A stretch of DNA of 64,000 bases from a virus (IMGVR_UViG_2974511964_000001:64001-128000); one strand, 5' to 3'. Shown: positions 21,766 through 62,403, counted from the first letter of the stretch. The notes: generated from the sequence alone by a model not told the origin. A program made the numbers and translations.

Positions 21766-24156
21766 ATGAGAGTCATTTATTGTACAGTAGGAATGCCAGC
21801 ATCTGGCAAGAGTACATTTTTGAAGCATTCACCATTAAAAGATTATGTGGTTGCTACTGATGAGTTACGTAAACTGGTATCAACACCACAAATTAATTAT
21901 ACACCTGACACTGATGCAATTACTGTTGGGTTAAATAATGACATTAATAAAAAGATTTGGGATATGACTTATACACTGGTTGAGGATAGAATGAAGAACG
22001 GTGAAACTATTGCAGTTGATGCAACTTTTCTGTTTAAGTCTCCCTTCTCAACTATTAAAAAGTTATGTAAGCTATACAATTATCGTTTGATTACAATTGA
22101 TTTTATTAATACCGGATTATCTTTTGAACAATTATTAGACCGAAATAATAATATTGACCGAGTGCAAGAGCACAAGGATGTATCTTATGATACTATGAAG
22201 AAGTTCTGGAATCGCCAGCAGAATATCACTGTCCCTAACAACTGGAACATGATTAAACCCGAAGAGCTAGAACAATCATTAGCTTGGCACTGCTCCAATG
22301 TTGACAACTATAAACAAGTTATCGTTATTGGGGATATTCACAGTAGCTACACAGTATTAACTGCTGCTCTTAAAGACAATGACCCAATTGATAACCCTGA
22401 TAAGTTATATGTTTTCTTAGGGGACTACTTAGACCGAGGAACTAAACCAGCAGAAACATTCAAGTGGCTATATGAACGCAAGGATTTACCTAATATGGTT
22501 CTACTACGAGGTAACCATGAGTATCATTTAGAACACCACTACCAAGGACTACCTATCACTAATAGTGGTGCTCGTAAGGAAACAATTCCAGCATTATATA
22601 AAGCAGGTATTACTAAGGAAGATATTCGTAAGTTTGTCCGTAAGCTACAAGATGTTTACTATATTGAATATCATGGTCAAAAGTATTTATTCAGCCATGC
22701 TGGGGTTCCTACAACCCCTGAGTTTTTAAAGACAACCACAGGCATTCCACTATTTGTGGATACTAAAATTGGCTTAGAAGAAATTAACCTATTAGATGAA
22801 TCTGTGTTTACTAAGGGTATTGGTGGTTTTAAAATTAATCTAGAACAATACAATCATGATTATAGTAATAGCACGGTTTACCCAATTCAAATTCACGGCC
22901 ACCGCAATGTTCAGCTTAACAAGGCTAAGTGGGATAATACCATCAACCTAGAACAACAAGTAGATACTGGGGGTAACTTAGCCATGGTAGTGCTAACGGG
23001 TGATAAGCATGAGATTAAGCTGGTTAAAAATAACGACTTTGACTATGCCTACGCTACTGACAAGGCCGATATTGATTTAAATATCCTTAGTAATGAACAG
23101 GTTAAAGACATTATGGAAAGAACCAAAGGGATTAGACAGAAACGTGATGCTAGTGGATTAACTGCTAACAACTTTACCCCAGAAGTTTTTTATGGTGATA
23201 ATTTTAATAAGTTTAGTGTAACTGCCAGAGGTCTATTTACTGACAGCAATGGTGATGTGCAACTACGTGGGTTTAACAAGTTCTTTGTTCTCGACCAGCG
23301 TCCTGAAACCAAGCTAACCGCAGTGCTAAAGAATGCTAAATACCCTGTGGTTGCTGCTAAAAAGTACGATGGTCACTTATCCTTACTAGGGTGGTACGAC
23401 GGGAAGCCCCGTATGTTTACCAAGAGTGGCTCGACTAATCTAGCCAAGGTTGACTGGCATAACTTTAGTCGGTACCTGCACGATATTGATAGGTATACAT
23501 TCATGGAAGACTGGCTAAAATTGCATCAGAATAAGACGATTTTAATGGAGTCTCTTAACGAAGCCGAAGATGCTCACTTAGTGGATACTCATGGTAAGGT
23601 TGGCTTTAGATTGTTAGAAGTAATTGAAAATAAGTATGAGCCTACTGGTGGACGTAATTTCACAGATACTAACTTGCTAACCGCATTACTAGGGGAAACT
23701 GACAAATGCTACTTTAAGATGGCTGAACGGTATGAAATTGCTAATGACAGGGAATTAATGGAACTAATTAATAGTTCTAAACAAACTAACTACAAGTTGC
23801 CATTGGGTAGTTACTATCAAGGGATTGACCCAACTACTTATGAAGGTTGGGTATTGACATTTGCTGATGGTTTTAAGATTAAGGTTAAAAATGCCTATTT
23901 CTTAGCAATCAAAGAATTTCGTAATAAGCTAGAAGTGGCCTTAGATAACCCAATGTATTATAAGGGTAACGCTTGGAATAACCTAGTTGACCGCAGTTAT
24001 AATGAACAAGCTAAGCGATTATTAAGAGCTGTTGCTGGTAAAGAGTTTGCACCTTTCTTTGAAAATCGAGATAAAATGAGTAATATTGACCTACCACAAG
24101 CTTTGAAAGCTACTGGGCTAGACCATAATAAGATTGTTGAAATTGTGAGTGACTAA
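21766..24156 (+). CDS. Polynucleotide kinase - metallophosphatase - RNA ligase fusion (PNKP-like RNA repair enzyme)
   Basis: P-loop GMPASGKST and VDAT; GDIH, GDYLDRG, RGNHE, HGH; ligase ARGLF, KFF, KYDG, EGWV, KVK. Confidence 0.9.
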   Translation: MRVIYCTVGMPASGKSTFLKHSPLKDYVVATDELRKLVSTPQINYTPDTDAITVGLNNDINKKIWDMTYTLVEDRMKNGETIAVDATFLFKSPFSTIKKLCKLYNYRLITIDFINTGLSFEQLLDRNNNIDRVQEHKDVSYDTMKKFWNRQQNITVPNNWNMIKPEELEQSLAWHCSNVDNYKQVIVIGDIHSSYTVLTAALKDNDPIDNPDKLYVFLGDYLDRGTKPAETFKWLYERKDLPNMVLLRGNHEYHLEHHYQGLPITNSGARKETIPALYKAGITKEDIRKFVRKLQDVYYIEYHGQKYLFSHAGVPTTPEFLKTTTGIPLFVDTKIGLEEINLLDESVFTKGIGGFKINLEQYNHDYSNSTVYPIQIHGHRNVQLNKAKWDNTINLEQQVDTGGNLAMVVLTGDKHEIKLVKNNDFDYAYATDKADIDLNILSNEQVKDIMERTKGIRQKRDASGLTANNFTPEVFYGDNFNKFSVTARGLFTDSNGDVQLRGFNKFFVLDQRPETKLTAVLKNAKYPVVAAKKYDGHLSLLGWYDGKPRMFTKSGSTNLAKVDWHNFSRYLHDIDRYTFMEDWLKLHQNKTILMESLNEAEDAHLVDTHGKVGFRLLEVIENKYEPTGGRNFTDTNLLTALLGETDKCYFKMAERYEIANDRELMELINSSKQTNYKLPLGSYYQGIDPTTYEGWVLTFADGFKIKVKNAYFLAIKEFRNKLEVALDNPMYYKGNAWNNLVDRSYNEQAKRLLRAVAGKEFAPFFENRDKMSNIDLPQALKATGLDHNKIVEIVSD

Positions 24157-24664: not shown

Positions 24665-24946
24665 ATGAAAATTAATGACAACCGTAATGATGACTGGAAG
24701 CTCGGGGATGTTTTATATGATAATATTTCTGAAAATTACTATTTAATTGCAAGCTACAAGCACGAAATAGGATTAGTTAATTTAGAAAGCGGGATTTCTG
24801 TGCTATCCCATAATCATGATGAATATCGTACTATCATTAACTCAGATAATTCAAATAAAAATGTGGTAAAACAAATTTTGAAACATTACAATGGAAAAGA
24901 AGATTTAGTTAAGATTGACAATGCTTACTTGAATGTGGAGGATTAA
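24665..24946 (+). CDS. Hypothetical protein (DWKxGD beta-domain family)
   Basis: Paralog of the next ORF. Confidence 0.7.
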   Translation: MKINDNRNDDWKLGDVLYDNISENYYLIASYKHEIGLVNLESGISVLSHNHDEYRTIINSDNSNKNVVKQILKHYNGKEDLVKIDNAYLNVED

Positions 24947-24950
24947 TAAA

Positions 24951-25238
24951 ATGAAAATTGATTATGATAATGCTAAACACGATAATGATAAATATAATAC
25001 TGCTAAACAGGATTGGAAAGTAGGGGACATAATCCAAGATGACCTCATTGGCGGCGGTTTGTTTATGGTAGCTGAGGTTCCTATTGATGACTATGTTCTC
25101 TATACGTTGATTAATTTAGAAGAAGGGCGTAGCTTGGTATGTACTAATACTGTTAGTGAACTACAACAAACCTATCAGGAAAAGGGTGATAGGGTTCTTA
25201 ACGGGACTTTTAAGTATATTGGTGGGGATGACAAGTAA
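24951..25238 (+). CDS. Hypothetical protein (DWKxGD beta-domain family)
   Basis: DWKVGDII...LINLEEG; SD GGAGGA. Confidence 0.7.
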   Translation: MKIDYDNAKHDNDKYNTAKQDWKVGDIIQDDLIGGGLFMVAEVPIDDYVLYTLINLEEGRSLVCTNTVSELQQTYQEKGDRVLNGTFKYIGGDDK

Positions 25239-25305: not shown

Positions 25306-25494
25306 ATGAGCTGGTTTAATAGAAATAAAAATTGTCCGTATTGTACTCAAACAATGCCTTTTATGAGTAGGGAAGGGATTGAGTTGAGGATTGTATATGG
25401 TAACCAACTATTTACAAGTTATGAAAGTAAACAGATTAATATCACTATTAACTATTGCCCAATGTGTGGTAGAAAGCTGATGGGAGTTAAATAA
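25306..25494 (+). CDS. Small zinc-finger protein
   Basis: CPYC...INYCPMCGRKL. Confidence 0.7.
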   Translation: MSWFNRNKNCPYCTQTMPFMSREGIELRIVYGNQLFTSYESKQINITINYCPMCGRKLMGVK

Positions 25495-25880
25495 TGGAAC
25501 AGCTAGATTTATTTGATACAACAACTAGTACAACTACTAAGAAGGTTACCCGTAAGCGTAAACGTAAGGTTAAGGTAACCACTACCACCACCACTACCAC
25601 TACACAGCCTATCAACCAGCTACTTGTTGATGAAGAGTCAAAGCTAAAAGAACTGTTATCTCAGCCCAAACAATTCGATGCTCTGAGAGGGGCTATAAGC
25701 TGGTTTAAGTCCAAACAGTATACTTGGTACTGTAACACGGTAGAACGTCCTGAGCGAGCTCTGAGGGGTCTTCAAAGCCATTTGAACGTGTCTGACGATA
25801 AATTTTATAAGATGTTGCTTAATGACAAGGTAATGGTAGGGTTAGCAAAAGGAACCTATTTAGTTTATTATAAAAAATGA
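25494..25880 (+). CDS. Hypothetical protein with Thr/Lys-rich N-terminus
   Basis: TTTSTTTKKVTRKRKRKVKVTTTTTTTTT. Confidence 0.7.
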   Translation: MEQLDLFDTTTSTTTKKVTRKRKRKVKVTTTTTTTTTQPINQLLVDEESKLKELLSQPKQFDALRGAISWFKSKQYTWYCNTVERPERALRGLQSHLNVSDDKFYKMLLNDKVMVGLAKGTYLVYYKK

Positions 25881-43741: not shown

Positions 43742-43962
43742 AGCAATTAGGGTTATCCATGGGGGTAGCCCTTTTATATACATCCGTTTATACGCCACTA
43801 TAAGCTTGTTACGGACGTTTTATATTAGGGGTAGTATAATTACACTAGGCATAGTCTAAAACGTCTCACAGGGCTTGTATGGACGTTATAGAGGTATTGA
43901 CACCACCATTATACTATGTTATGCTATATTAGAGTTGAAAGCAGTTGAAAGGTGGTACACTA

Positions 43963-44223
43963 ATGACTAATCATAACAAGCAACAACAAGCATATGCAAC
44001 ACCAGTTAAGGACAAGCTACGGCTATTAACAGGTAAAGTTATCACGCTTAATACCTATAACACTAACTACCCAGTTGAATTTGTCGAACCATTGTTATTC
44101 TATATTGCTTATGGCTTACCTGATAAACTAGACACTAACACATTGACTAGCTATTTCAATCAACACTACACCAAGGGTACACCACTTAATAAAGTAGGAC
44201 TGCACTTAATTAACCCTCACTAG
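43963..44223 (+). CDS. Hypothetical early protein
   Basis: Promoter at 43896, SD GAAAGGTGG. Confidence 0.65.
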   Translation: MTNHNKQQQAYATPVKDKLRLLTGKVITLNTYNTNYPVEFVEPLLFYIAYGLPDKLDTNTLTSYFNQHYTKGTPLNKVGLHLINPH

Positions 44224-44412
44224 GCTATTTTGATAGCTATAAATTAATTTCAATTAGGTGGTTGCATTCAATTGCCTAATATGGTATATTTAAAGAGTAG
44301 AAAAACAAGACATCAACCGGCAAAATAAAATAAATTAAATTCAATTAGTTGTTGACATGTTAGAATATGAGGTTTATACTTAAGTCATTCAATAAGCAAA
44401 GGGGTTTTATAC

Positions 44413-44754
44413 ATGATTAAATTAGAGAACACGATTAAAGTTTTTGTACCAGTAACTAACAATGACGGGGTAAAGGTTGACTTAAACCCTGAAATTAAAG
44501 CCGCCTTAACGGTTATCGGGGGCGCCACTACCTATACAGCCCGAGGCAATTGGACGGACAATAACAGGCTGTACACCGATAACATTAACGTTATGCAGTT
44601 CAATACTATGGACTTTAACAAGGACACTACTCGGGTTATCAGTGACCTAATTCGTGCAATCTTTATTAAAGCCGAGCAACTAGCCGTTAGCGTTGAAATT
44701 AACGGGGTTCTATACATTTTAGAAAGTACTGAAGATATTAAAGAATTATTTTAA
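44413..44754 (+). CDS. DUF3574/PII-like fold protein (possible SAM-lyase relative)
   Basis: FVP...GGATT..ARGNW...D...QLAVSV pattern. Confidence 0.5.
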   Translation: MIKLENTIKVFVPVTNNDGVKVDLNPEIKAALTVIGGATTYTARGNWTDNNRLYTDNINVMQFNTMDFNKDTTRVISDLIRAIFIKAEQLAVSVEINGVLYILESTEDIKELF

Positions 44755-44825
44755 AATAGCTGTTGACAACTTAAAAAGTAGGGTATATACTTAAGTCATT
44801 AAATAAGAAAAGGAAGTTATACATT

Positions 44826-44963
44826 ATGACATCACGCAAAAACAACTGCTCAACTATCAAGGCCACTAAGGGTAACCAAGTTCGTTACTTGTCTACACGG
44901 GACGAAACTAAAGGATTAGACATTCAATTAGACTTATTGGAGTGGACACTAACAGCTATCTAA
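44826..44963 (+). CDS. 45-aa early protein (not in ORF track)
   Basis: Promoter at 44764, SD AAGGA, TACATT-ATG. Confidence 0.65.
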   Translation: MTSRKNNCSTIKATKGNQVRYLSTRDETKGLDIQLDLLEWTLTAI

Positions 44964-44980
44964 CAATATTATAATTATTA

Positions 44981-45009
44981 ACGGCTATCCATTAGGACGG
45001 CCGTTTTTT
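44981..45009 (+). terminator. Intrinsic terminator
   Basis: ACGGC/GCCGT followed by a T-run. Confidence 0.8.
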
Positions 45010-45629
45010 GTTGTCTATAATAGCATATCATGCACAATGCTATATAACGCATTGTAAGCCGTTCTAATCCATTTTAAGCTAGGCCGGTGTAATTACACTA
45101 ATATATAGATTAACACTCTTACACGCTATGTATGAAGCATACAGCTATACTAACGATATTATTAACACGTTACAGCGTGCTACAATAAAATTATATTATA
45201 ATTCGTGTATAAATTAACACGGTATATGCAATCCGCTATAATGTTACATTTATATTATTTTTATAAAATTCCCTTGACATTGTCGGCGTATAGTGTTATG
45301 TATCACACCCCCTCCCCCCTGTCAAGCCCCATACATAGGGGTACCTTGTCTACCTGCCTCGCTCAACCTTAGGCACAAATATTTTAGCCCAAAATTTTAG
45401 CATATTATACGGTATACTGAACACTATAATGAACTCCCATATGCACTGCCATATACCCTCCCCCCATTAAATAAATGAGCAGCTAATTCTAAATACCGGT
45501 ATATAAACAAATCCTAAAAACGCCCCCATAAAATTTTTGGCCTAATCAAGGCTATCGTAAATAAAAAGACTGCTCAATTAAGAGTAGCCTTTAGAATACT
45601 AATATTGAATTGTACTTTTATCAGTATTA

Positions 45630-45860
45630 TTACTCTGCAACTTTGGTTAGCAGCGGCATCCCATCTGAGTGAGACATAATAACTAATTTATTAATACCTT
45701 CATAGTCAGAATTAATTGTAAATGGCCGGCTAATACAAAAAGTATTTCCATCCATATTCTTAACCATAGCAAATTTATCTTTACTATCTTTACCAACGAT
45801 TTTAGCAACAGTGTCTGAACTACAAATGTTCTCTTTTGTGTAATAATCCTTAAATGTCAT
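45630..45860 (-). CDS. Hypothetical protein
   Basis: SD AAGGAG. Confidence 0.7.
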   Translation of the reverse strand: MTFKDYYTKENICSSDTVAKIVGKDSKDKFAMVKNMDGNTFCISRPFTINSDYEGINKLVIMSHSDGMPLLTKVAE

Positions 45861-45889
45861 AATTACTCTCCTTTTGTGTCTTTAACAAA

Positions 45890-46243
45890 TTATTTAACTA
45901 ATGTGAACCCTAAGCTATCCACAAGATAGCCTAACTTCTTTATTTCGATATCTTTATTAACAACAGTCCAATCATCTGTGTTAACAATTGAAACGAACGA
46001 GGGACTTTCTTGGATTACTATAAAGTAAGCATCCCCTTTTCGTAATTTACTCCCAACCCCCAGTTCAGAATACTCTTCCCAACTTTGAGTCATATCCGCC
46101 CTGCATGGCAGGTAGTATTTGCCGTTGTTATAAACAGCCTGGTTAAAAGCATCTAAATGAATATAAGAACCTTTAGGCCAATTAACCCCACGTACTCTTG
46201 TACCATTCATTAATACCATTTCTAGAGCTTCATCAAATTCCAT
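45890..46243 (-). CDS. Tad2/DUF2829-like domain plus C-terminal beta-domain, paralog 1
   Basis: MEFDEALE...G.RVR..W...YI...D....WE. Confidence 0.65.
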   Translation of the reverse strand: MEFDEALEMVLMNGTRVRGVNWPKGSYIHLDAFNQAVYNNGKYYLPCRADMTQSWEEYSELGVGSKLRKGDAYFIVIQESPSFVSIVNTDDWTVVNKDIEIKKLGYLVDSLGFTLVK

Positions 46244-46245
46244 AA

Positions 46246-46686
46246 CTAGTTATCCCCCTCTGTATTAGCTAATCTATTGTGATGCTTCCTAGCAACATTC
46301 CAAACCTCATCAAGTTCATTCTTGTCAGACTTACTAGCTATCGAAAGGCTCTGAAAATTCAACATACTAACAAGTTGTCCCTCATCAATACCTTTGGCTA
46401 TTTCAACGAATGTTTTATCATCTAGGATTGCATAAGTACCGTCAGCTTCCTTAATCAACCGATACTTACTGGTGCTACCATATTGAGTTAATAGTGCACC
46501 TGCTGATGGAATATCAGCAATTTCCCAATCTGCAATAAAATCTTTCTTACTGAGACTAAACGGACTTCCAGTATTACCTACAACATCACCATCATCATTT
46601 AGCATAATATAACCATATCCTGTTGAGTTTACTCGTGTTACCTTTTTACCGTCTAACATAGCTTGTAATGCTTCACTAAATTTCAT
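46246..46686 (-). CDS. Tad2/DUF2829-like domain plus C-terminal beta-domain, paralog 2
   Basis: MKFSEALQAMLDGKKVTR...YI...S..DFIADWEI. Confidence 0.7.
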   Translation of the reverse strand: MKFSEALQAMLDGKKVTRVNSTGYGYIMLNDDGDVVGNTGSPFSLSKKDFIADWEIADIPSAGALLTQYGSTSKYRLIKEADGTYAILDDKTFVEIAKGIDEGQLVSMLNFQSLSIASKSDKNELDEVWNVARKHHNRLANTEGDN

Positions 46687-46708
46687 AGTTAATCCTCCTA
46701 GATTAGTT

Positions 46709-46945
46709 TTATTCTTTACAAGTCCGGCCATGAAACCACATGAGCGTATCCATTTCCTCGTGAGGGCTGTCTAGCTTGGTTTCAACTATACGGATTCCAA
46801 AATATTCAGCATCTTCAAAGCAAGAAATATAACGACTTGCCTTTTCCTTCGTAGAAAACACACCTAGAATACCACACATTAGGTTTGTATGGTCTTCGTT
46901 GTAACTTTCATATTCACATTCTTGATAAACAAGGTATACTGTCAT
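46709..46945 (-). CDS. Hypothetical protein
   Basis: VYLV...ILGVFSTKEKA phage motif; SD GGAGG. Confidence 0.7.
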   Translation of the reverse strand: MTVYLVYQECEYESYNEDHTNLMCGILGVFSTKEKASRYISCFEDAEYFGIRIVETKLDSPHEEMDTLMWFHGRTCKE

Positions 46946-46974
46946 ATTGGACCCTCCGTTATTAATTATAGATT

Positions 46975-47703
46975 CTAGTCACCCACGTTTAGGAGAGTGT
47001 ACCCCTCAACCCTAAGCAGTATCTTGAGCATATCTTCTCTAATGTGTTCCCTTACTACCATATAGGTTTCTGTATTAACAATCGAATAGGTGTTATCCGG
47101 GGAAACAACTATCTTATAGAAGTTGCCGTTATTATGCTTTAAAACAGTACCCGCCATAGAGTAACTGTAGTGCCAATCATGGTACGTACTAGAATCGCTA
47201 AAAAGATAGGTGTCTCCATTTTCATCAATAAAGTCGTTGTTATCAGCATCTAGCATAATATATTCATTCGGTTCCCAGCAGTCGGCTCTAACTTTTTTGC
47301 CCTTCAGCATAGCGCGCAACGCCTCATTAAAATTCATACTAATTTCTCCTTGTACTGTAGGACTGTCTGCTATGAATCCCAGCCCATATACTACATCATC
47401 TACATAAGTATTAGGAATATCCTCAATTAAAGTTGCCCAACATGACATACTAACAATAGAATAGGTGTGGTCGTCTGCTAGTACAATAATAAAATCATTG
47501 CTGTTGCAGTGCAATATCATCCCAGACTTATCGACTACTCCCATACCCGTTCCAAGCTCATATGTGCTTCTCTCTACTAGCTTAGGTCCAGAAGAAGTCT
47601 TAATACCTAAAGGATTTTTGAAGGAATCAATAGGATGGTCGCAATGCTTGTTCAATACCTTGTCAAAATTCAGCTTATTACTAGTAATTTCATTTAACTT
47701 CAT
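46975..47703 (-). CDS. Beta-domain - Tad2-like - beta-domain protein, paralog 3
   Basis: Internal MNFNEALRAMLKGKKVRADCW with its own SD (ATG at 47337). Confidence 0.65.
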   Translation of the reverse strand: MKLNEITSNKLNFDKVLNKHCDHPIDSFKNPLGIKTSSGPKLVERSTYELGTGMGVVDKSGMILHCNSNDFIIVLADDHTYSIVSMSCWATLIEDIPNTYVDDVVYGLGFIADSPTVQGEISMNFNEALRAMLKGKKVRADCWEPNEYIMLDADNNDFIDENGDTYLFSDSSTYHDWHYSYSMAGTVLKHNNGNFYKIVVSPDNTYSIVNTETYMVVREHIREDMLKILLRVEGYTLLNVGD

Positions 47704-47721
47704 GGCTTATCCTCCTATTGA

Positions 47722-48081
47722 CTAATTACTATATTTAATTACTTTCATACCATACGATTTAATAACATCATCAAGTCTATCCTTATAGATATCACCAATA
47801 AATACTCTCCAAGTTTTAATATCAACAAGGTCTAACCTGCCACGGTTATTCCAAACAACCCGATACCGGTCTTCTAGATGGCTTAGCAGCGCTCCTACAG
47901 TAACTTTAGGCTGGTATAGGTTCCACTCTGCTTCATATAGTCTATCACCAATAGAATATGGAAAACCCTGTTCATCTACAATTTTGTTATCAACCAACTC
48001 AATATAGTCATGTCCAGCCCAGGTTTTACAACAAACCCTTTTACCTTCCAACAGGCATTGCAATGCTTCACTAAAAGTCAT
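47722..48081 (-). CDS. Tad2/DUF2829-like domain plus C-terminal beta-domain, paralog 4
   Basis: MTFSEALQCLLEGKRV..KTW...YI. Confidence 0.65.
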   Translation of the reverse strand: MTFSEALQCLLEGKRVCCKTWAGHDYIELVDNKIVDEQGFPYSIGDRLYEAEWNLYQPKVTVGALLSHLEDRYRVVWNNRGRLDLVDIKTWRVFIGDIYKDRLDDVIKSYGMKVIKYSN

Positions 48082-48389
48082 AATAATTCCTCCTTGATAG
48101 TATTATCGCTAACATAGATGTTTGAAGAAAGCAGTGTTGGCGAATACGTTCTAGCTAGCTGAGTAAGTGTGTTCCTTACTACTGAGACATCAATAGCAGA
48201 GACCACTGCGACATCTAGTGTAATGTCATAAACAGTATCTCCATTTTTAGGAAATGAATAAGAAGTTAAATAATGCGGGTGGAACCTTACAATAGTGTCT
48301 AAAATGCTTGTAAATTGGCTTTCGGTTAAATTAATAAACCCTAAAGACGCATGTACTAAAAATTTTGATTTTACTTCACTTGTTTTCAT
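48078..48389 (-). CDS. Hypothetical protein
   Basis: SD AAGGAG. Confidence 0.7.
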   Translation of the reverse strand: MKTSEVKSKFLVHASLGFINLTESQFTSILDTIVRFHPHYLTSYSFPKNGDTVYDITLDVAVVSAIDVSVVRNTLTQLARTYSPTLLSSNIYVSDNTIKEELL

Positions 48390-48391
48390 GC

Positions 48392-48568
48392 TTAGCTCTC
48401 CTTTGACTTATTGTCTTTCTTGTATGCTCTGTACTCTTCTTGACTTAAGCCTAGTTTAACTCGTTCAGCTAGATTAGTCAACTCCTTTTTAAACTCGTCA
48501 CTTTCGTTATACGCTAGTACCTTTCTGGCAAGTGGGTCGTTCTTATTGACCATGTCTTTTAAACTCAT
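48392..48568 (-). CDS. 58-aa protein, paralog of 52695..52859 (not in ORF track)
   Basis: MSLKDMVNKNDPLARKVLAY..S.EFKKEL..LAERVKLGLSQE. Confidence 0.7.
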   Translation of the reverse strand: MSLKDMVNKNDPLARKVLAYNESDEFKKELTNLAERVKLGLSQEEYRAYKKDNKSKES

Positions 48569-48939
48569 AGGGATTTATCCTTGTTATATAACGCTTCACG
48601 AGCTTCATCTGCCAGTTTAATTTGATTAGTCAAAACTTTATCTTTGACATCCGGATTGTCAGGTCTAATGCCTGCCTTTAAAGCCATCTCAATAATACCG
48701 CCCATATCTTCTGAGCTAAACTCCCACGGTTCATAGACGTCTTCCATGGTATACTTAGCAAAGTCAGCCATATACTCGTAAAATTCCTGCATACTAACAG
48801 GGACCCATTCTTTTAAATCTTTCTCATGCTGCTGTTCTGCAAGTTCATTATTAACTTTGTCTAGCTGTTTGTTTAACTTCCTCTTTTGCTCTAATAGTTC
48901 ACTATCCGTTTTAGTCATTATTGATTTCTCCTTTACCAA
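48565..48939 (-). CDS. Hypothetical protein
   Basis: ORF in an operon. Confidence 0.7.
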   Translation of the reverse strand: MVKEKSIMTKTDSELLEQKRKLNKQLDKVNNELAEQQHEKDLKEWVPVSMQEFYEYMADFAKYTMEDVYEPWEFSSEDMGGIIEMALKAGIRPDNPDVKDKVLTNQIKLADEAREALYNKDKSL

Positions 48940-49514
48940 AGTCCTAGGTATTCCCGATAGGGATATGGGCTATCCTTGTGTTTTGAAACATCAACAGATT
49001 CTCCAAACTTTTCACAGGCTCTATTAACACTATCTTTTAAGAATTTCTCAAAAGACCCATCCCTCAAAGTAAAGTCACTAGCTGGGAACTCTGAGGGTAT
49101 ATCATAACTATTTAGCTTCTTCAAGTAATTAATAACCTGTCTAAAGTTTTCACATTTATATATGTCATCTTTAAGCTTGTTTAAATATGCTACTTGGGAT
49201 TCGTGAGCCTGAAACGCTATATGCTTTAATTCTGGGATAGTCCATACATTCATAATTAAACCGTATTCATCTCTAATGTATAAGTAGGTGACCGTACTAT
49301 TATGCCTATTCATAAAATCTAAATATTTCTCATTCTTGTCACCTTGATACCAGTCTTTAGCTAGTTCTTCGTTATATCCCTGGTCAAAGTTATATATAAC
49401 CCCTTGCGCAGCATTCGACCAAAGACACTCTTCCCCAAATTTAGAGCGCCCTAGTACCTTTTCACCCCAATAATTTAAACCATTAATAAGTGCTTCTTCA
49501 TCTATTTGCTTCAT
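48933..49514 (-). CDS. Hypothetical protein
   Basis: SD AGGAGGA. Confidence 0.75.
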   Translation of the reverse strand: MKQIDEEALINGLNYWGEKVLGRSKFGEECLWSNAAQGVIYNFDQGYNEELAKDWYQGDKNEKYLDFMNRHNSTVTYLYIRDEYGLIMNVWTIPELKHIAFQAHESQVAYLNKLKDDIYKCENFRQVINYLKKLNSYDIPSEFPASDFTLRDGSFEKFLKDSVNRACEKFGESVDVSKHKDSPYPYREYLGLW

Positions 49515-49525
49515 TTTTAGTCCTC

Positions 49526-49894
49526 CTAGTCAGTAGAGCCATCATTGATAACTTCCATACCCAATGATTTAATAGTGTCATCAATTTTATCCATATGAAT
49601 ATCTCCGATAAATACTCCCCAAGTCTTAGTATTAACAATGTCTAGTTTGCCCTTTTTATTGAAAACAACCCGATATTGGCTTCCGTAATAGCTTAGCAGT
49701 GTTCCTACAGTAACTTTAGACTGATATAGTTCCCAACTAAGCATAAGGTCTGTCTTGTCAATAGTGTAGATGTTCCCAAGGCTATCAATAATATGGTCAT
49801 GGGAACCTATCATGATATAATAATTGTCCCACCAGTAAATTTGTCTAACTTTATTGCCATCTAATAATGCATCCATTGCTTCACTAAATTCCAT
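49526..49894 (-). CDS. Tad2/DUF2829-like domain plus C-terminal beta-domain, paralog 5
   Basis: MEFSEAMDALLDGNKVRQIYW...DLMLSWEL; C-terminus close to 47722..48081. Confidence 0.65.
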   Translation of the reverse strand: MEFSEAMDALLDGNKVRQIYWWDNYYIMIGSHDHIIDSLGNIYTIDKTDLMLSWELYQSKVTVGTLLSYYGSQYRVVFNKKGKLDIVNTKTWGVFIGDIHMDKIDDTIKSLGMEVINDGSTD

Positions 49895-50707: not shown

Positions 50708-50760
50708 ATCCGTCTATCCTTATTAAATAATAATAGTATATTAAAAATTGTTTGTCAAGT

Positions 50761-51099: not shown

Positions 51100-51378
51100 C
51101 TAGTACCATTTAGCTTCCCCAAAGATAAGTTCTTTTGGTGCTATTAAATCTAGTTCAACATTTTGAGTCTTAGCATATTCCTCGTAGTATTTATAGTTAG
51201 CCGTAATATGCTTAATTTCATCAGTAGTAAAGCCACTACAGAACAATAGCGCTGAGTGTTTGCCTTGATAGGCACTAGTTTGCATCACCTTAAACATCTT
51301 ATTCCATAATTCAGGCTTAACCTGCCGTTCTCGGTAAGTCTTAGCAATTATTCTTAGTTGTTCTCCGCTTGTCAACAT
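51100..51378 (-). CDS. Hypothetical protein
   Basis: SD GGAGGA. Confidence 0.7.
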   Translation of the reverse strand: MLTSGEQLRIIAKTYRERQVKPELWNKMFKVMQTSAYQGKHSALLFCSGFTTDEIKHITANYKYYEEYAKTQNVELDLIAPKELIFGEAKWY

Positions 51379-61638: not shown

Positions 61639-62403
61639 TTATTTAGCGTTGGCTTTAGAGAACCATTTGCTGTCAAAGAACGCAACCAAGTCATTCATAA
61701 TATATAACATATAAGTGAAGAACAGAACCCAAACAGCTTCTCCTTGCATTGCAGTTACAAGCCACAGAACGACTGAGCTAAGCCCCTGTGCAAACCAGAA
61801 GTAGTAAGAAGCACGGAAACGGCGAACGGTTAAGATTGCCCCCGTAAGACCGATAGTAGCGGCAAATGCGTCAATAAACGGACGAGGACTCGTTAAGATA
61901 ACCGTATCAAGACCATATGTCACGATAAAGAAACCAACGAAAGTTAATGCCGTCTGCAAAGCGAACTTGGAGTTCATCTTACGAGGTTCTAAATCTTTAC
62001 CATTATTCCAAGTCTTATTAAATAGCACCGGCAAGTCCAACAGAAAGATATAGAAGCCTTGCATAACAATATCAGAGAAGTTCCCTGTCTTTAATGCCAC
62101 GTAAATCAGCATAGCCGCAGAAACGAAGCCCAGAACACCGTTGATAGGACGTCCGTTCGTGATACTTAAAGTACAAGTAAAACCAATCAACCCGGCAACC
62201 GTTGAAGTTACTCCCAAACCAGTAATTCCATGACCAAGACCAACGTATAACAGGAACAGCCAACCAATTACCAGCAAGACATAGCTGGACTTTGTCCAGC
62301 CGGTCATCTGGTCTTTGTACCAACGCCAATTAAATACCCGACTAACTGATTCCGGGTTATATCCTAAATCCACCACTGTATTACCTTGTGTTTCTTGCTG
62401 CAA
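61639..62403 (-). CDS. pnuC: PnuC-family nucleoside/vitamin transporter (lactobacillus PnuC/PnuN type)
   Basis: Multi-TM protein; GFTCT..I..GRPING, W, PFIDAF, YYFW..Q. Confidence 0.85.
   Translation of the reverse strand: MQQETQGNTVVDLGYNPESVSRVFNWRWYKDQMTGWTKSSYVLLVIGWLFLLYVGLGHGITGLGVTSTVAGLIGFTCTLSITNGRPINGVLGFVSAAMLIYVALKTGNFSDIVMQGFYIFLLDLPVLFNKTWNNGKDLEPRKMNSKFALQTALTFVGFFIVTYGLDTVILTSPRPFIDAFAATIGLTGAILTVRRFRASYYFWFAQGLSSVVLWLVTAMQGEAVWVLFFTYMLYIMNDLVAFFDSKWFSKANAK

Follow-up and report, generated by a model that had tools for sequence, protein, structure and literature searches.

To our knowledge, no other family of phage immune-signal sponges is as widespread or as versatile in function as Tad2, whose characterised members are all single-domain proteins that carry an insertion and are encoded by single genes. 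The Tad2 of phage SPO1 is a tetramer of two V-shaped dimers, each formed by helix alpha2 (in the beta2-beta3 loop) and strand beta2, that interlock along helix alpha1; its pockets lie between two non-dimeric protomers and comprise W25, N26, I63, T65, D67, H71, W73, S76, T78 and D79 (10.1101/2023.05.01.538930). HgmTad2 has a further pocket, made by its long insertion, that takes cyclic dinucleotides (10.1101/2023.11.15.567273), and Tad2 homologs together block Thoeris types I, II and IV, the cyclic oligonucleotide-based anti-phage signalling system (CBASS) and Pycsar (10.1101/2025.08.24.671296). Our study concerns five minus-strand genes at positions 45890-49894 of a 64,000-nucleotide stretch of viral DNA (hereafter the window), which represents bases 64001-128000 of the 137,973 bp, 98% complete virus record IMGVR_UViG_2974511964_000001. 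By studying these genes we show that, as judged from their sequences, they constitute an old multigene family (phrog_6670) of small acidic two-domain proteins in a virulent Lactiplantibacillus plantarum myophage. Their N-terminal domain resembles a stripped-down Tad2, and we tentatively propose that they are oligomeric binders of small host molecules.

The window is that of an LP65/Semele-like lytic myophage of L. plantarum. Between 45.5 and 50.5 kb it matches the Herelleviridae phages Semele (87.8% identity), Bacchae (90.9%), Lpa804 (91.9%) and LP65 (82.4%), each match covering part of the region. The BFVD database holds proteins of phage Iacchus of exactly 122, 242 and 161 residues that match our AlphaFold2 (AF2) model, and the window phage is therefore, on these matching protein lengths, probably Iacchus or a near-identical phage. 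All five open reading frames (ORFs; 117, 161, 242, 119 and 122 residues) match phrog_6670, a family of unknown function, with E-values from 1.6e-34 to 5.5e-41 across profile positions 1-117/119 of 120; a search of the whole genome returned the five copies, one half-copy and nothing further. The motif common to all five is MxFxEA..G..V....W..YI...W followed by G.LL...YRVV...IV, the conserved W being Ser in the 46246 copy, and the remaining four copies are 22-31% identical to the first. These matches and the motif alignment confirm the five paralogs with a shared two-domain motif that had been described in the initial annotation.

A sequence profile and a predicted fold both place the N-terminal domain with Tad2. 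The AF2 model of the 119-residue copy (G1a), built from a 16-sequence alignment, has a mean predicted local distance difference test (pLDDT) score of 90.5; its residues 1-57 form a helix, three strands, a short helix and a strand. In an exhaustive VIA search these residues matched ModTad2 (9eib_A) and HgmTad2/AcrIIA7 (8kbi_A) with Z 9.9, a root-mean-square deviation (rmsd) of 1.4-1.5 Å, 57 of 57 residues aligned and 25% identity, clearly above unrelated entries (next Z <=5). Foldseek related the SPO1, Mod, Hgm and Spt Tad2 proteins to the N-domain model at a probability of 0.95-1.00, with weak E-values. A profile of 22 N-domain sequences found six matches in the PDB, all of them Tad2 (E 3e-5 to 0.03). 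Taken with the fold match, this makes the homology of the N-domain to Tad2/DUF2829 well supported, and the assignment made in the initial annotation from the N-terminal pattern is borne out. The Pfam family PF11195 covers the N-terminal 30-60 residues of all five proteins (profile positions 1-31 to 1-61 of 73); with the gathering threshold at 25 bits, two of the five pass (27.4 and 26.0 bits) and three fall below it (21.5, 19.2 and 13.3 bits), such that the search proposed earlier for this family matched every copy but would classify only two. A neck protein of Staphylococcus phage 812 (8qkh chain S) also resembles residues 1-57, with Z 6.2, an rmsd of 2.1 Å and 12% identity, and the small Tad2-like fold may therefore also have a structural use in the Herelleviridae.

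The C-terminal domain, of about 60 residues, is family-specific and without a confident known fold. Its model (residues 58-119) comprises four strands, a 10-residue helix and one strand. It matched no Pfam family, YopX included, gave no sub-match in PHROG and no usable match in the ESM Atlas, and its best structural match in the PDB reached Z 5.1, in agreement with the earlier description of an unrecognised second domain. That match is to the C-terminal part of phage 37 ORF041 (2p84), followed by 2qyz (3.8) and 2ox7 (3.5), scores in the common-background range of the tool; weaker matches in the same range include other small phage proteins and Tudor, KOW and CarD barrels, and Foldseek entries for YopX also appear. 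We take 2p84, 2ox7 and 2qyz to belong to the Pfam YopX family, and 2i2l is named YopX by the tool. The likeness to these phage proteins is that the best structural matches are to their C-terminal parts; the scores, however, lie in the background range and no sequence similarity was detected, and we regard the relationship as a lead and not as an assignment. Profile searches with the C-domain found two-domain proteins only, of ~110-205 residues. Elsewhere in the window, two plus-strand ORFs at 24665-24946 and 24933-25238 are mutual paralogs (BLASTP E 6e-6) with a shared DWK.GD...L(I/V)NLE.G motif. They had been listed, at 24665 and 24951, as similar stand-alone domains, a relation to the C-domain that we could not detect: hhalign gave probabilities of 10% and 0.1%, BLASTP E-values of 0.26-0.67 against a family member, and hmmsearch an 18-residue match at E 0.03 only.

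Copies of phrog_6670 number six in Semele, four each in LP65, Bacchae and Lpa804, and one in the siphovirus Satyr, and a tblastn search of 50,697 phage records found the family only in L. plantarum phages (18 of 18 records). A maximum-likelihood tree places each window copy in an orthogroup of its own that is common to other phages, with support values of 97/97, 100/99, 99/99, 100/99 and 82/72 (the G4 clade has 100/99), and these orthogroups span two virus genera. From the separate, supported orthogroups it follows that the duplications predate the split of Harbinvirus and Salchichonvirus and that each copy has been kept. The ratio of nonsynonymous to synonymous substitution rates (dN/dS) between orthologs is 0.14-0.64; for the G2 copy, whose orthologs in Semele and Bacchae are 95-96% identical, it is 0.14-0.38. 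Together, these sequence comparisons show an array that is old, conserved and under purifying selection. Helix alpha1 does not vary in 121 two-domain sequences, nor do the core residues M1, F3, E5, A6, G13, V16, Y26, W53, G63 and L103. Residues 18-25 and 37-47, the loops that line the pocket in Tad2, are the most variable part of the proteins, even inside orthogroups, and the C-domain is conserved inside orthogroups and divergent between them. The idea of a diversified panel of paralogs thus stands, given the separate orthogroups and the variability of the pocket loops.

The wider family was surveyed with an exhaustive profile search, which yielded 912 relatives at E <=0.001. Of 230 that were retrieved, 105 combine both domains and 124 contain only the N-domain, and the C-domain never occurs without the N-domain. 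Tandem pairs of N-domains are present in 50 of these 124, in keeping with a functional unit that is paired, and a further four have three or four N-domains. A 2228-residue protein with an apparent 15 repeats (P0048) was rejected as spurious; it is a surface protein with Lipocalin_3/Listeria-Bacteroides repeats and has no PF11195 match.

From the homology and the genomic context, we consider the best single hypothesis to be that the proteins sequester small host molecules as oligomers, most plausibly nucleotide-derived immune signals, and we hold it tentatively. Two protomers would pair through the conserved helix alpha1, as in Tad2, and both would contribute their beta1-beta2 loop, with Trp21, and their beta3-alpha2 loop, with Tyr/Phe42 and an Asp near 46-48, to a pocket. 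The C-domain could supply the second oligomer contact, the role that helix alpha2 of the insertion has in canonical Tad2. The pocket would differ from one orthogroup to the next, and with it the ligand or the affinity; the ligands are probably not canonical 3' cyclic ADP-ribose (3'cADPR) recognised through Trp-Asn...Trp-x-x-Ser-x-Thr-Asp. A bolder version, which we think quite improbable, would have the C-domain as a new oligomerisation or ligand-binding module replacing the Tad2 insertion, and the four to six orthogroups as a combinatorial panel of sponges, possibly hetero-oligomeric, for several Lactobacillaceae signals that no known sponge binds. Oligomerisation, ligand binding, a role in counter-defence and early timing of the array are all what we infer from the analysis as a whole.

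Several observations weigh against sequestration and have to be set beside it. The beta2-beta3 insertion is absent: the strands are joined by a turn of 3-4 residues, nothing corresponds to residues 36-59 of SPO1 Tad2, and the Tad2 chains matched by the 57 residues of the model are 86-104 residues long. In contrast to Tad2, the proteins thus have no beta2-beta3(-beta5) insertion to provide a helix alpha2 dimer contact or a pocket for cyclic dinucleotides. Nor is the motif that contacts glycocyclic ADP-ribose (gcADPR), Trp25-Asn26(-Gly)...Trp73-x-x-Ser76-x-Thr78-Asp79, matched: each window copy has 1-3 of the six listed contacts identical, in SPO1 numbering (used here for positions 25-26, 73, 76, 78 and 79) and with residues read from sequence alignments, not from side-chain superposition. 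None of the 24 copies examined, from six phages, keeps the phosphate contact Asn26, and position 73 is never Trp, being Tyr or Phe in the window copies (Table 1). In favour of sequestration, pocket residues are partly kept: the Trp25 equivalent is present in five of six orthogroup consensus sequences, as are an aromatic residue at the Trp73 position (5/6) and an Asp at position 79 (5/6; 3/5 window copies by alignment); G4, the largest orthogroup, loses both aromatic positions in its consensus, where position 73 is Val. The insertion is missing and the contact motif degraded, and the proteins therefore lack two defining features of Tad2 while sharing its core; in sequence and predicted fold they are a minimal core variant that differs from ordinary Tad2 sponges. 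According to Li et al. (10.1101/2023.11.15.567273), ~99% of Tad2 homologs conserve the gcADPR site, and by that criterion the window proteins would be called non-binders.

The closest experimentally tested relative points the same way. This is homolog no. 80, the only insertion-less Tad2 homolog tested in the panel of the Sorek laboratory (10.1101/2025.08.24.671296), which aligns with the N-domain end to end (hhalign 97%, E 1.1e-10, 62 columns). It had no inhibitory effect on type I Thoeris, type II Thoeris, Escherichia albertii CBASS or Bacillus Pycsar, the four systems for which transformants were obtained (Table S2, 10.1101/2025.08.24.671296). Homologs nos. 72 and 79 of the same table lack Asn26 and still inhibit type I Thoeris, and loss of this residue is therefore not disqualifying. 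All five N-domains are acidic, with isoelectric points of 4.2-4.8 and no sign of a basic nucleotide pocket; as a counterweight, the pockets of canonical Tad2 are not basic either. Finally, distant relatives of the N-domain are fused to ResT/TelK-like, Clp_N, HTH_23 and WDGH domains. The HTH_23, ResT/TelK and WDGH fusions suggest that the minimal domain is a general-purpose module, and the variety of partners calls for caution in assuming one function for it.

The main rival, which we judge possible if on the unlikely side, is that these are host-takeover or anti-defence factors that bind proteins: the barrel and the C-domain would form a scaffold whose variable loops engage host proteins, such as the effectors or sensors of defence systems or proteins with housekeeping roles; each orthogroup would be directed at a different or fast-evolving host protein, and no small molecule would be sequestered. 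The degraded ligand motif and the lack of a sponge phenotype in no. 80 speak for it, as do the isolated phages that have the family, all from one host (18/18 records), as for a host-specific protein target; the C-domain, the same within orthogroups and different between them, behaves like a specificity surface, and the genes lie in a small-gene block typical of host-takeover modules. Yet sequestration of small molecules is the sole activity demonstrated for the Tad2 fold, the reported anti-Cas9 activity of AcrIIA7 not having been reproduced (10.1101/2023.11.15.567273); most orthogroups retain Trp21, an aromatic residue at 42 and the Asp, and the tandem-pair architectures fit an inter-domain pocket. 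Improbable in our estimate is a function outside counter-defence, in which the proteins would serve the DNA metabolism or regulation of the phage as a small module for oligomerisation or association with nucleic acids. The fusions of minimal-domain relatives to telomere-resolvase-like ResT/TelK catalytic domains, HTH_23 and Clp_N would suit such a module, but they belong to distant relatives of the N-domain and not to the two-domain family; the phage 812 neck protein has the same small fold, though its Z of 6.2 falls in the range that the tool calls common. Neighbours of the LP65 genes bear old 'DNA replication' notes. Acidic proteins, however, are poor candidates for binding nucleic acids, and four to six diverged copies are hard to square with a housekeeping role.

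That the array consists of canonical anti-Thoeris sponges, binding 3'cADPR/2'cADPR or histidine-ADP-ribose (His-ADPR) as SPO1 Tad2 and ModTad2 do and multiplied for dosage or as minor variants, appears very improbable to us. Homology and fold do match Tad2, the 242-residue Iacchus protein has been named automatically 'Thoeris anti-defense 2-like domain-containing protein' in UniProt/InterPro, and the G1b copy retains W...Y..D.TD, by alignment more of the ligand contacts of Tad2 (W, Y, T, D) than any other window copy. The phage genome also has genes for two PnuC transporters of nicotinamide mononucleotide/nicotinamide riboside and for one Nudix protein, and a weak CTP_transf_like (NadR-like) match; one PnuC gene is in the window (Table 1) and the other outside it (43772-45937 of the virus record), adjoining the Nudix gene and the NadR-like match. 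Together these look like a salvage module for nicotinamide adenine dinucleotide (NAD), a circumstantial hint of pressure from NAD-depleting defences that would suit canonical sponges and also the sequestration hypothesis that we favour. As further context for the latter, 37 of 401 Lactobacillaceae species genomes (a family-level sample with no tie to L. plantarum itself) encode TIR_2 proteins, and TIR-based systems therefore exist in the host family. Set against a canonical mechanism, however, are the absence of Asn26, the replacement of Trp73 and the loss of the insertion and helix alpha2 in all copies, as well as the failure of no. 80 to block type I or II Thoeris; the low identity to the first copy and the old, separately conserved orthogroups argue against mere dosage. 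We place sequestration by a minimal core variant, with ligands that are probably not the canonical one, ahead of these readings.

Table 1. Features of the array and its surroundings, in window coordinates, with the residues at the Tad2 ligand-contact positions 25-26 and 73.
Feature	Position	Strand	Evidence or remark	Residues 25-26	Residue 73
G2 paralog, 117 aa, mini-Tad2-like N-domain and C-domain	45890..46243	-	phrog_6670 E 3.9e-40, full length; PF11195 19.2 bits, below cut-off	W-P	Y
G4 paralog, 161-aa ORF	46246..46731	-	phrog_6670 E 1.6e-34 over residues 16-134; Trp25 equivalent is Ser	S-T	F
G3 paralog with 122-aa N-terminal extension, 242 aa in total	46975..47703	-	phrog_6670 E 2.3e-39 over residues 123-239; PF11195 27.4 bits, above cut-off	W-E	Y
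Extra C-domain-like segment in the N-terminal extension, residues ~60-110 of the 242-aa ORF	47374..47526	-	phrog_6670 positions 62-113, E 1.3e-5; C-domain hidden Markov model (HMM) E 7.8e-5
G1a paralog, 119 aa, modelled copy	47722..48081	-	phrog_6670 E 5.5e-41; PF11195 26.0 bits, above cut-off	W-A	Y
G1b paralog, 122 aa	49526..49894	-	phrog_6670 E 1.8e-40; PF11195 13.3 bits	W-W	Y
76-aa ORF directly downstream of the array	45630..45860	-	Homolog fused to a family member in metagenomic protein P0026
DUF7336 protein, 78 aa, between two paralogs	46709..46945	-	PF24024 E 1.4e-15; phrog_15305 E 8.6e-26
Sigma-70-like promoter TTGACA-17-TATTAT upstream of the block	50730..50758	-	Consensus scan, 11/12 matches; pattern match only
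PnuC gene inside the window	61663-62205	-

Two of the genes have more than one candidate start. In the G4 copy, the ATG at 46731 has no Shine-Dalgarno (SD) sequence and would overlap the upstream DUF7336 gene, while the ATG at 46686 follows an AGGAGG and gives a protein of 146 residues, including a 27-residue C-terminal tail; the true start is therefore most likely 46686, as the overlap of the DUF7336 gene with the long version of the ORF also supports. The G3 gene has an SD sequence before both its outer ATG (47703) and an internal ATG at 47337, the latter with AAGGAG 8 nt upstream. This ORF had been read as domain-Tad2-domain with an internal start, and the extra C-domain-like segment found in its extension agrees with that reading; the segment is possibly the remnant of a sixth paralog. 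The orthologs of G3 in Semele and LP65 are without the N-terminal extension, for which tblastn against phage records gave no match, and in the AF2 model of the 242-residue ORF its 122 residues have pLDDT values of 25-55, with the extra segment below 50.

A minus-strand block of small genes, preceded by strong sigma-70-like promoters, has the paralog genes at its distal end; two further promoters of this kind, likewise with 11/12 consensus matches, are at 51375 and 52384. No strong terminator was found within the block from the 50730-50758 promoter to the end of the array, and this layout would suggest early expression. The 76-residue ORF downstream of the array has no Pfam or PHROG match; its close homolog in the 203-residue metagenomic protein P0026 follows, in frame, a two-domain protein of the G5 type, a fusion that may reflect a functional link of this ORF to the family or a read-through artefact.

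Other parts of the window contain further genes of interest. A full-length TnpB/IS605 OrfB-type gene (384 residues) lies inside the phage at 25927-27081 (+), and its closest relatives in bacterial genomes are from Lactobacillaceae (Companilactobacillus, Liquorilactobacillus and Levilactobacillus), with up to 72% identity over the best-matching segment; the hits included no Lactiplantibacillus genome. A 796-residue ORF at 21766-24156 (+) contains, as read from its sequence, motifs that resemble those of a P-loop kinase (GMPASGKST), of a calcineurin-like phosphoesterase (GD..GDYLDRG..GNHE) and of a ligase (KYDGH), and would be a fused repair enzyme of the polynucleotide kinase-phosphatase/RNA-ligase type. 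In a 128-residue ORF at 25494-25880 (+) there are long runs of threonine (TTTSTTTKK...TTTTTTTTT) and a stretch of basic residues, KRKRK.

Should the proteins bind ligands, the array would show a phage diversifying one sponge fold into a panel, and could point to signalling molecules of lactic acid bacteria, whose defences matter for food fermentations. Were the combinatorial panel real, it would be a natural multi-specific toolkit against signalling and would supply binders for signals yet to be identified. If no ligand is bound, the Tad2 fold would have been reused for another purpose, and the family would serve as a warning against the automatic annotation of minimal DUF2829 domains as "anti-Thoeris". 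The supplement of the sponge-diversity preprint does not mention these L. plantarum phages, and we found no paper linking DUF2829/Tad2 with L. plantarum phages.

Among described proteins, no. 80 (73 residues) is alike in being insertion-less and in having Trp-Pro in place of Trp-Asn, but it consists of one domain and lacks the C-domain. Fusions of two sponge domains are frequent, as in Acb4-Tad2 and Tad2-Sequestin/PF21825, and the fused Tad2 moieties of such double sponges have been modelled as tetramers (10.1101/2025.07.12.664507). The proteins of the window share with these fusions the combination of a Tad2-type domain and a second small domain in one short phage protein, and by analogy the partner domain is a reasonable candidate for a sponge or an oligomerisation module; it is, however, neither Acb4 nor Sequestin, but a beta-rich domain absent from Pfam. 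Compared with Tad2 itself (SPO1 Gp34.65, ModTad2, HgmTad2/AcrIIA7 and SptTad2), the N-domain has the same helix signature, M-x-F-x-E/K-A-L...G-x-x-V-x-R-x-x-W, and the same small antiparallel sheet ending in D-W, and is likewise phage-encoded. It differs from Tad2 in being joined to an extra C-terminal domain of ~60 residues and in being present as four to six diverged paralogs per genome in place of one gene. What is new here is this arrangement, in which a stripped-down Tad2 core is coupled to an unknown domain and kept as four to six separately conserved paralogs per genome.

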